A stretch of 64,000 nt of DNA from a bacterium (GTDB lineage: Bacteria > Patescibacteriota > UBA1384 > VFKW01), in assembly GCA_030647355.1 (NCBI GenBank), contig JAUSIS010000004.1:4066-68065 (forward strand), given 5' to 3'. Position 1 is the stretch's first letter, and each line of letters starts with the position of its first letter. Positions 50,007 to 52,456 of this stretch are shown in pieces. The translations under genes were made by a program, and so were the position numbers. Under the pieces are notes generated by a model. It was not told the DNA's origin, did no database searches, and saw only the letters and a list, made by a program, of their open reading frames with translations.

Positions 50007-50257
50007 CTATCTTGACTCCAAAAAGAAGAGTAAGGGGACGGTTCTCAAATAATCTCAAGATTCGCTAAAAACATATCAACTAAATCCCGTTAGAGCAAGC
50101 GCCCTAGGCAATAGTCAAAAAACCAAACGCGGGGTAAATTTTCCCTTTGCCCTTCCGTAGTCCCGCCATCCGGTGGACGAAGGAGGGTTGCCCAAGCGCT
50201 CTTTTGAGAGTAATATAAAACCAAAGCAAGGGGTGATATTGTTAAACGAGGGAATAA

Positions 50258-50548
50258 ATGAAACCTTTTTATAAAAAAGAAGATTTTACACTTTTTCAAG
50301 GCGATTGTTTGAATGTGTTAGCTGAAATGCCCGAAGATTCGGCTGATATGATTTTTGCCGACCCACCCTACTTTCTCTCAAGCGGTTCTTTTACTTGTCA
50401 GAATGGTAAAATGGTTAGCGTTAAAAAGGGCGATTGGGATTTAAGCAATGGGACTAAAAAGAATTTTGAATTTCATATTGAGTGGATAAAGGCATGTAAA
50501 AGAGTTCTGAAACCCGGCGGATCTATTTGGATAAGCGGGACTATATGA
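50258..50548 (+). pseudogene. N-terminal fragment (96 aa) of a beta-class (DPPY-first) N6-adenine/N4-cytosine DNA methyltransferase, truncated before the AdoMet-binding motif
   Basis: ..FQGDCLNVLAEMPEDSADMIFADPPYF.. (motif IV DPPY) followed by a stop. No FxGxG motif in any downstream frame. The stop overlaps the start of the next gene (ATGA). Confidence 0.55.
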
Positions 50549-51315
50549 AATTAACTTTTGATTTACAATTTGCTGATAACTATAAAAGTCAATCGCAAAG
50601 GGTGCGTGTTTTAACTGAGCAATGGGTTAATGATTCGGTTTTTTGTCCAAATTGCGGATATCTTAATATTGATAGATACCCAAATAATCAACCAGTTGCC
50701 GATTTTTATTGTTCAAACTGCAAAGAAGATTACGAATTAAAAAGCAAACAAGATAGTGTAGGAAAAAAAATAGTAGATGGCGCATATCGAACTATGATTG
50801 AACGATTGCAAAGTAGTAATAACCCGAATTTTTTTCTGCTTTACTACGATTTACAAAATTTCGAAGTGCAGAATTTTCTTGTCATACCAAAACACTTTTT
50901 TATTCCCGAAATTATTGAGAAACGAAAGCCACTTGCGCCAACTGCCTACCGTGCCGGCTGGATTGGTTGCAATATCCTTTTACAAAGTATCCCACAAACC
51001 GGAAAAATATTTTTTGTTAAAAATAGGCAGGTTGAATCAAAAGAAAAAGTGCTTACAGAATGGCGAAAGACTCTTTTCTTGCGAGAAGAAAAAGAAATAA
51101 AAGCAAAGGGATGGCTACTGGATGTTATGATGTGCGTAGATAAGTTCAAGTGTAAAGATTTTTCGCTCGATGATATGTATACATTTGAAAACGAATTAAG
51201 CAAGAAGCATCCTGACAACCGTCATATAAAAGACAAAATTCGCCAGCAATTACAAATTTTGCGAGATAAGGGATATATCGAATTTACCAACCGAGGAAAT
51301 TATAGGATAAATTAA
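50545..51315 (+). CDS. DpnI-like type IIM (methylation-dependent, G(m6)ATC-type) restriction endonuclease
   Basis: Collinear with R.DpnI as I recall it: N-terminal ..YKSQSQRVRVLTEQWV..CPNCG..PVADFYCSNC..ELKSK..; NNPNFFLLYYDLQNFEVQNFLVIPKHFF; KPLAPTAYRAGWIGCNI; C-terminal winged-helix IKDKIRQQLQILRDKGYIEF. Confidence 0.65.
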   Translation: MKLTFDLQFADNYKSQSQRVRVLTEQWVNDSVFCPNCGYLNIDRYPNNQPVADFYCSNCKEDYELKSKQDSVGKKIVDGAYRTMIERLQSSNNPNFFLLYYDLQNFEVQNFLVIPKHFFIPEIIEKRKPLAPTAYRAGWIGCNILLQSIPQTGKIFFVKNRQVESKEKVLTEWRKTLFLREEKEIKAKGWLLDVMMCVDKFKCKDFSLDDMYTFENELSKKHPDNRHIKDKIRQQLQILRDKGYIEFTNRGNYRIN

Positions 51316-51317
51316 AA

Positions 51318-51509
51318 ATGGAAATTAAATTATCACCATTTTTTGCAAAAATGATTCTGCAATTTAATCCGTTCACGCGGTTTAAAGTTATGTGTCTTGG
51401 ATATGGGGAAGATTTTGTAAATTATACCGAACTTGTGTGGCAAGACGACAAGCACCTAGATTTCACCAACAAAGAAGACTATCCGCAATTTCAGTTATGG
51501 TATGTTTAG
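51318..51509 (+). CDS. Hypothetical small protein (63 aa)
   Basis: ORF only. Possibly the 5' part of a frameshifted gene (see findings). Confidence 0.25.
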   Translation: MEIKLSPFFAKMILQFNPFTRFKVMCLGYGEDFVNYTELVWQDDKHLDFTNKEDYPQFQLWYV

Positions 51510-51805
51510 GGTCGTGAAGGGCAAGTATGGTAAATGGATTCAGGCAAGGACAAAAGGTACCGGGGGAATAAACCCCAGAACAGGTGAAAGACGACCAATA
51601 ACCCGTGCATTTTACGCAAAAACCGGTTTGGTTAAGAAAATTTTTGAAACTGCATCATAGACAAAATCACCAACGACGAAATCCAGTCTTGACTTGACGT
51701 TTCCGATGCCACCGCTTGCCGATACCTTGATGATCTCGAAAAGGAAGAACTCTTGAAACAAGTCGGCACCGACGGCCCGAAAGTATTTTATCAAAAGGAG
51801 GAAAA

Positions 51806-52456
51806 ATGACACTATCTGCCAATAGCACGAGTAATCTAACGAGAGCCCTTTTATTAATGTCTTTTTTATTTGGAATTTTTGCGTTACCCAAACCAATTTT
51901 GGCGGCTCCAGTGCCTACTACCCCCAGATGTGGATTGGAAGCTATGATAACCAACCTATCCATTGAAATTACAAAGCCAGATGGCATCTCATACGAAGGC
52001 GGTGAGACACAATATTTCCCCACTATCAAAATCACTAAAACCAGCAAAGTCGGAGATACAATAAAGGGTGCACCAAAAACTTGCGAAGAAGCATTTCCGA
52101 TCGGCAAGATCATTGAAACCAGTATTATTAAAGAGCGAGACCTAAATCAAGGCAATGAACTTAAAGTTGGCCAAGTAATTGGCTTTACAGGCTATATGCG
52201 AATTGATGAATTTTCCAAGGAGCCCGGACTAATTATAGATACTAATCCTTCCAATTCAGAGTCTGTTAGGATTATAAAAGATGTCGGCATAGATGAAGAC
52301 AATGACGGGAATGGAGAAACGCAAACCAATAAAGCACTATATTATTTACTGATTATTCCGTTAGCATTTCTGATATTTGCTGGATATTTTATCATCAAAA
52401 GACACAAAACCAAAGTAGACTCATCGGTAAAGAACGAGGAAACGAAATTGGACTAG
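51806..52456 (+). CDS. Hypothetical secreted/cell-surface protein (signal peptide and C-terminal TM anchor)
   Basis: N-terminal LLLMSFLFGIFALPKPILAAP. C-terminal LYYLLIIPLAFLIFAGYFIIKRHK. Preferred over the overlapping antisense ORFs. Confidence 0.5.
   Translation: MTLSANSTSNLTRALLLMSFLFGIFALPKPILAAPVPTTPRCGLEAMITNLSIEITKPDGISYEGGETQYFPTIKITKTSKVGDTIKGAPKTCEEAFPIGKIIETSIIKERDLNQGNELKVGQVIGFTGYMRIDEFSKEPGLIIDTNPSNSESVRIIKDVGIDEDNDGNGETQTNKALYYLLIIPLAFLIFAGYFIIKRHKTKVDSSVKNEETKLD

Follow-up and report, generated by a model that had tools for sequence, protein, structure and literature searches.

Why should the start codon of a gene for a nuclease directed at methylated GATC sites overlap the stop codon of a broken DNA methyltransferase gene? 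The question is raised by a locus in a 64,000-nucleotide (nt) stretch of the patescibacterial contig JAUSIS010000004.1, hereafter the window. An earlier note, made from the letters of the window alone, had recognized there a 256-amino-acid (aa) open reading frame (ORF) resembling R.DpnI directly behind a 96-aa methyltransferase fragment. We propose that a gene replacement has left its scar here, a DpnI–orfA cassette having taken the place of the middle of a GATC restriction-modification operon, and on the comparison of sequences described below we give this reading a probability of about 0.8. Four features make up the locus; the earlier note had placed the first two correctly and missed the other two, orfA and the nuclease stub:

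50258..50548, + strand: 5' stub of a beta-class N6-adenine DNA methyltransferase gene of the DpnA/M2.DpnII-like group, 96 of ~265 codons
50545..51315, + strand: complete gene of a DpnI-family nuclease (Type IIM, Gm6ATC-directed by family), 256 aa from its ATG, with domains PF06044 and PF17726
51318..51509, + strand: orfA, a conserved 63-aa partner gene, starting 2 nt past the DpnI stop
51505..51660, + strand: 3' stub of a MutH-family GATC endonuclease gene, the ~50 last codons (residues ~164–213 of 214), inside the ORF 51502–51660

The methyltransferase ORF (NCBI protein record MDO8512956.1) is the beginning of a gene whose remainder is gone. Its 96 residues matched the Pfam family N6_N4_Mtase (PF01555; E value 2e-11) over profile positions 2–53 of 221 only and the PADLOC family MTase_II over positions 4–96 of 260. 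They aligned to residues 15–100 of CcrM (E value 1e-14) and were 80% identical to residues 3–96 of an intact 270-aa methyltransferase at another locus (L004). Motif IV (DPPY) is present as residues 35–38, and both the target-recognition region (TRD) and the S-adenosylmethionine (AdoMet)-binding motif I (FxGxG), which are C-terminal to motif IV, are missing; in full-length relatives of ~260–275 aa, such as that of L004, the AdoMet motif LDPFTGSSTTG is found near residue 220. No methyltransferase-like sequence was detected downstream of the stub in any frame of the window. As had been claimed, then, the ORF is a beta-class fragment that keeps DPPY and ends before the AdoMet motif, and we predict it to be catalytically dead.

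The nuclease gene behind the stub (NCBI protein record MDO8512957.1) is complete. It matched both domains of the family, DpnI PF06044 (E value 5e-82) and DpnI_C PF17726 (1e-33, residues 187–254), as well as the PADLOC family mREase_II (1e-115), and it aligned end to end with R.DpnI (PDB 4esj; E value 4e-90, 54% identity), bearing out the proposed collinearity. The proposed domain layout, a PD-(D/E)XK core with a zinc site followed by a winged helix, also held when compared with the catalytic residues and zinc CXXC pairs defined for R.DpnI (PMC3424567): E25, D53, E64 and K66 are all kept, and are invariant among four relatives, the two CXXC motifs C34-P-N-C37 and C56-S-N-C59 flank D53, and the C-terminal winged-helix reader of methyl-GATC is present (PF17726). 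The ratio of nonsynonymous to synonymous substitution rates (dN/dS) against relatives was 0.05–0.12, and by its sequence the gene is intact and under purifying selection. The ATGA overlap between the stub stop and the DpnI start, to which the earlier note had drawn attention, is real (50545–50548) but not special. In ATGAAATTAACTTTTGA, the conserved DpnI 5' end of related loci, the two other frames are closed by stops at +3 and +16, and since these end every upstream frame, the overlap is no evidence by itself.

On the far side of orfA, the cassette is followed by the end of a second broken gene. The MutH-like stub was 78% identical to residues 164–213 of a full-length relative (L007 5129–5773; tblastn E value 7e-20), and the full 214-aa relative matched Pfam MutH (PF02976, 1e-9) and aligned over residues 15–206 to the Escherichia coli MutH structure (PDB 2azo). 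The catalytic D...ExK core, located in the N-terminal half in the MutH/Sau3AI family, is missing from the piece in the window, which by this measure is a remnant and not a functional family member. A DpnII-family remnant was looked for in the window and none was found, the nuclease remnant being MutH-like instead.

What the displaced operon may have been is indicated by the relatives that kept it. We gathered 80 genomic loci with close relatives of the methyltransferase stub, most of them full-length methyltransferases, and classified the genes immediately 3' of these by protein clustering followed by a Pfam scan of representatives. The partners were a MutH-like nuclease, present as a full gene (12 loci), a ~174–188-aa protein of no named family (11 loci), a Dam-like D12 methyltransferase (10 loci, several with R.DpnII further downstream), a DpnII-family nuclease, R.DpnII, directly (7 loci) and a DUF6996/DUF6997 protein (5 loci). 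MutH/Sau3AI, DpnII and Dam are GATC families, and the pneumococcal DpnII system is likewise composed of a beta methyltransferase, a Dam-like methyltransferase and R.DpnII. The intact methyltransferases with GATC-family partners were 60–80% identical across the stub region. Because intact relatives precede MutH-like or DpnII-family nucleases, we read the locus as a GATC restriction-modification operon with a replaced middle; the case is specific to this locus because the window itself keeps a MutH-like stub. The GATC specificity of the lost methyltransferase is thus supported by association. Intact cassettes of methyltransferase and nuclease, which the earlier note had anticipated in relatives, exist with either kind of nuclease directly behind, and its proposal of a cassette replacement with an inactivated methyltransferase agrees with the dead stub, the MutH-like stub and the GATC-family partners of the intact relatives.

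Some further observations concern these relatives. A first protein search with the 96-aa stub had returned only matches of at most 168 aa (~1.75 times the query length), as if all stub homologs were short, a pattern suggestive of an intron, an insertion element or a split gene. We rejected this when the genome scan showed most relatives to be full length (257–285 aa), and the short matches most likely reflect a search length limit together with contig-end fragments; a length-limited homolog search can falsely suggest that a whole methyltransferase family is truncated. An exact-sequence look-up of the window's DpnI and stub proteins among contigs gave no match. The partner protein of ~174–188 aa (loci L002, L010, L012, L021, L025, L035, L052, L055, L064, L071 and L074) had no Pfam match in the one representative scanned, that of L002, and may be an undescribed GATC nuclease family. 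In a Sphingobacteriales bacterium (TSM_CSS, L046 5001–7291), the methyltransferase belongs to the family studied here but has an aberrant C-terminus. The next gene encodes a 264-aa protein in which a PLD-type nuclease domain is fused to a DpnI C-terminal winged helix, and a MutH-like remnant (residues 13–145) comes after it; judging from these sequences, an operon of this kind seems to have taken in another type of methyl-reader nuclease there.

The same scar recurs in other genomes. A metagenome scan with the DpnI alignment gave 80 loci whose DpnI proteins were 70–88% identical to the window's. In 24 of them methyltransferase-derived sequence abuts the DpnI start (hidden Markov model (HMM) independent E value, i-E, < 0.01); several more stub-bearing loci were recognized by eye beyond these HMM matches, and a MutH-like stub lies right behind orfA in 12 other metagenome loci. 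At L001, the locus of the stub homolog that was nearest among those on long contigs, a methyltransferase stub of 110 aa precedes DpnI, which is followed by a small ORF and by the C-terminal 114 residues of R.DpnII; L008 has the same arrangement with a nearly complete R.DpnII, and L029 has a methyltransferase stub of 184 aa. The junction positions vary widely, from methyltransferase residue ~13 to 184 and from nuclease residue ~76 to 195. The left junction of the window (..IWISGT, in general ..IW[IA][SN]GT, followed by at|ATG) is common to L089, L098 and L147, whose DpnI proteins are only 72–82% identical to the window's, and the junction is therefore old or has been passed around and does not represent a unique recent event. 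The replacement seen by the earlier note thus stands, but the "captured snapshot" is not a fresh one, its junction being shared across such distances and the scars being widespread.

Comparison of the junctions revealed at least 12 classes, in which 0–10 nt separate the end of the remnant from the DpnI ATG, or no more than ~10 nt lie between the orfA stop and the beginning of the remnant. Every remnant is a contiguous terminal piece without internal deletion. The stubs of L084, L085/86, L116 and L147 are decayed or reduced to short pieces, and many DpnI loci have no methyltransferase stub at all. In the DpnI tree of the window's clade, the 96-residue junction is basal and the shorter or absent stubs are nested inside, and it looks as if stub loss proceeds from the cassette-proximal side.

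Two further signals concern the history of the cassette. In 74 distinct DpnI ORFs we counted 31 GATC sites, compared with 92 +/- 6 in synonymous-codon shuffles, giving an observed-to-expected ratio (O/E) of 0.34, although the associated z-score overstates the significance because the sequences are related and were treated as independent. Other palindromes in the same ORFs had O/E values of 0.68–1.07 in the same shuffle test. The orfA ORFs contained 3 GATC sites compared with 13 in the shuffles, and the window's own cassette contains none; the intact methyltransferase genes (O/E 0.79) and the MutH-like genes (1.01) showed little or no depletion. A gene free of GATC would escape GATC nucleases in its unmethylated state and DpnI in its methylated state, consistent with a cassette that crosses between both kinds of host. 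The second signal is a mosaic of divergences. L090 and L091 have the same junction, and DpnI and orfA each differ between them by a synonymous divergence (dS) of 0.08, whereas their stubs differ by a dS of 0.75, nine-fold more. L092 and L091, contigs of separate samples, show 100% identity between a point ~100 nt into DpnI and the end of the aligned stretch, >800 nt past the nuclease stub, but are 73–88% identical in the methyltransferase stub and unrelated further upstream; this may mark a genuine breakpoint of recombination, or the assembly may have joined strains into a chimera. Among stubs that have a junction in common, each is nearest to a different intact methyltransferase, that of the window to L004 (80%) and that of L089 to L007 (81%), the two stubs being 69% identical to each other. 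The jump in divergence at the stub boundary indicates recombination through the stubs, and the GATC avoidance together with a stub history unlike the cassette's suggests that the cassette most likely spreads by homologous recombination.

The sequence of events that we consider likely would start from a two-gene operon consisting of a beta-class adenine methyltransferase gene and a MutH-family nuclease gene. The 3' two-thirds of the former and the 5' three-quarters of the latter would have been lost and DpnI–orfA put in their place, so that a single replacement probably inactivated both genes. Given the known incompatibility of DpnI and Dam, such a one-step double inactivation would have been the only viable way to install a cutter of Gm6ATC in a GATC-methylating lineage. 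The old methyltransferase promoter would then probably drive DpnI transcription, and translation of DpnI would probably depend on termination-reinitiation behind the 96-codon stub. The most likely role of the enzyme is to restrict incoming DNA with Dam-type GATC methylation, for example, phages grown on sister lineages that keep the GATC system, a logic of complementary defence like that of pneumococcal DpnI and DpnII. The cassette most likely spreads among related Patescibacteria with the remnant methyltransferase and nuclease sequences serving as homology, which the mosaic stubs show in part. Members of this radiation have been found to be naturally competent (PMC10187176), so exchange mediated by transformation would be plausible. 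A more far-reaching version, which we put forward only tentatively, is that the GATC-free DpnI–orfA module is a self-propagating, operon-replacing cassette. It would travel between Patescibacteria by natural transformation, use its remnants as homology arms to home into any related intact GATC operon and switch its host in one step from methylating to methyl-restricting. Its host would survive the takeover thanks to orfA, which might, for example, delay or damp DpnI until the old methylation has been diluted, and the anchoring of the junctions at the ORF ends of the cassette would be the mark of a mechanism with defined ends and not of decay.

Several observations weigh against the replacement reading, in addition to the relatedness of the sequences behind the GATC depletion. 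A scan for consensus promoters found none upstream of the stub, and the scan for promoters and terminators around the locus gave nothing above shuffle expectation. Neither simple decay nor simple homologous exchange explains junctions that fall within bases of the ORF ends of the cassette; candidate explanations are that termination-reinitiation is selected for, that a short AAATTATG-like leader common to the starts of the cassette ORFs offers microhomology, and that the cassette has defined ends. The best curated matches of the methyltransferase family, both in structures and in NCBIfam, are to CcrM, an enzyme of GANTC, and for this reason the GATC specificity of the lost methyltransferase rests on the association with its partners. 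In one locus (L121 42–1794), the gene of a full-length beta-class methyltransferase (263 aa, PF01555 6e-65) shares an ATGA with the start of DpnI, and orfA comes after the two; as this enzyme is apparently intact, a methyltransferase adjoining DpnI is not always dead. The last two points would favor a truncated methyltransferase that was not GATC-specific, such as a CcrM/HinfI-like enzyme of GANTC, which would have had no conflict with DpnI and whose adjacency would reflect the decay of a defence island. We regard this as improbable: the window keeps a MutH-family 3' end where intact operons have the full gene, the close intact relatives are partnered with MutH-like, DpnII-family and Dam-like proteins, and a stub–DpnI junction in 24 of 80 loci is unexpected from random adjacency. 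The L121 enzyme, presumably of non-GATC specificity, shares only ~40% identity with the present family and falls outside that group.

The stub is also a still-open frame with a dN/dS of 0.03–0.19 against relatives, low like that of DpnI, and its peptide could thus have a function, either as a small protein modulating DpnI or as a leader ORF for coupled DpnI translation. Most stubs are uninterrupted right up to the DpnI start, and by inspection the window's stub has a GAGG Shine-Dalgarno-like motif where DpnI has only a weak one. Against such a role, no common protein is kept among lengths of ~13 to 184 residues, the stubs of the four decayed cases named above are eroded or cut to a short internal piece, and many loci do without. 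The low dN/dS is not decisive, since stubs that derive recently from intact methyltransferase genes, or recombine with them, would give the same values without a function of their own, and a retained functional element seems unlikely to us. Far less probable still is an artefact of assembly or sequencing, or a recoded UGA in an intact methyltransferase gene. The stub does end in TGA, some relatives in the phylum reassign UGA and the source is a metagenome-assembled genome, but a TAA follows two codons past the TGA and rules out the recoding, and a complete DpnI gene begins at the junction. Because methyltransferase sequence is lacking downstream in every frame and the same junction was assembled independently from other samples, the truncation is not a frameshift or an assembly slip, in agreement with the earlier note, which had named an intact continuation of the ORF as an outcome that would speak against it.

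The 63-aa ORF orfA was found 2–12 nt downstream of DpnI in 37 of the collected loci. Its relatives form 41 protein clusters, every one of them unnamed or "hypothetical", and it had no match in the Pfam, NCBIfam and PADLOC families; in the NCBI record of this genome it is not annotated, though the stub and DpnI are. Pairs of orfA sequences gave a dN/dS of 0.05–0.18, which by codon comparison marks the gene as being under purifying selection. An AlphaFold (AF2) model was confident, with a predicted local distance difference test (pLDDT) score of 82, and found no fold match among solved PDB structures (best E value 3.3). At other loci the slot after DpnI holds a different small ORF, of which there are at least four unrelated kinds. 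In L095, L096, L099, L103, L105, L139, L141, L145 and L115, an intergenic motif, TTGACT...(T)GATCAAAGATC, is located just past the DpnI stop; it is conserved and includes two GATC sites, an alternative small ORF (MDISRELAIQILKYLD...) comes behind it, and it may be a methylation-sensitive control region.

The locus belongs with known replacements in the pneumococcus and in Neisseria. Pneumococcal DpnI (dpnC-dpnD) and DpnII (dpnM-dpnA-dpnB) cassettes alternate at one locus, recombining through flanking homology. The window resembles this system in that a small gene follows DpnI and in that the methyltransferase belongs to the DpnA-like beta class. No relationship was found between orfA and DpnD, which were compared through family and fold matches only and not through the DpnD sequence. 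The pneumococcus swaps whole cassettes between conserved chromosomal flanks and leaves no remnants, whereas the flanks in the window are the remnants of the displaced genes, and the displaced nuclease is MutH-like here and of the DpnII family there. It is of the same family as the MutH/Sau3AI-type GATC endonucleases that are paired with a methyltransferase, only its ~50 last codons being left. The pneumococcal analogy drawn by the earlier note is thus of the right kind, but the dam-replacing gene of Neisseria (drg/NmeBII; Pfam "Dam-replacing family") is an equally close precedent, being likewise a DpnI-family nuclease in a truncated GATC methyltransferase locus. There, drg is inserted in dam, which is truncated, drg appears foreign by base composition, and the activities of Dam and Drg are mutually exclusive (PMC4269198, PMC516771). 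The victim in Neisseria was an orphan alpha-class dam by leuS, whereas in the window a beta-class methyltransferase and its MutH-like nuclease are both cut, and the window adds to the Neisseria case a conserved 63-aa partner gene, a patescibacterial host and many junction variants. New with respect to both precedents are the double knockout, the remnant flanks, orfA and the many junctions.

The locus would extend the DpnI/DpnII and Neisseria dam-replacement cases to uncultivated, ultra-small bacteria, and its genetic logic would be that one compact cassette disables a methyltransferase and a nuclease and installs the opposite specificity. The recurrence of the scar, the GATC avoidance and the recombination signal suggest an ongoing alternation at the population level between methylating GATC and cutting methylated GATC, and such an alternation would affect both the defence against phages and the flow of genes in these communities. 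The product of orfA is a candidate controller of the methyl-directed nuclease.

Within the 64-kb window, tblastn found no other beta-class or Dam-like methyltransferase gene and no other DpnII-family or MutH-like gene, and the DnaK encoded there is nearest to proteins of Patescibacteria/Berkelbacteria. GATC is weakly avoided over the whole window (O/E 0.86), a value that is therefore not informative on the methylation status. DpnI relatives were not found in a viral contig collection, no loci sharing the outer flanks of the window were retrieved, no tRNA lies near the locus, and the GC-richer flanks (50007–50257 and 51600–51850) had no Rfam match to non-coding RNA at E value <= 1. Directly downstream of the MutH-like stub is one more piece of a gene:

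51663..51808, + strand: 3'-terminal ~48 codons of the gene for a small winged-helix protein with a membrane anchor; they contain an in-frame TGA (tblastx)

Full-length copies of this gene were found by tblastx in L135, L152, L112 and L137; the piece is outside the system and marks the locus as a patch of gene remnants. Elsewhere in the window, the most depleted four-base palindrome is GGCC (97 observed and 205 expected, O/E 0.47), with CGCG at 0.62, and this depletion may reflect another restriction pressure. A c-di-GMP-I-GGC riboswitch aptamer lies at 2742–2832 on the - strand (Rfam score 67 bits, gathering threshold 59).

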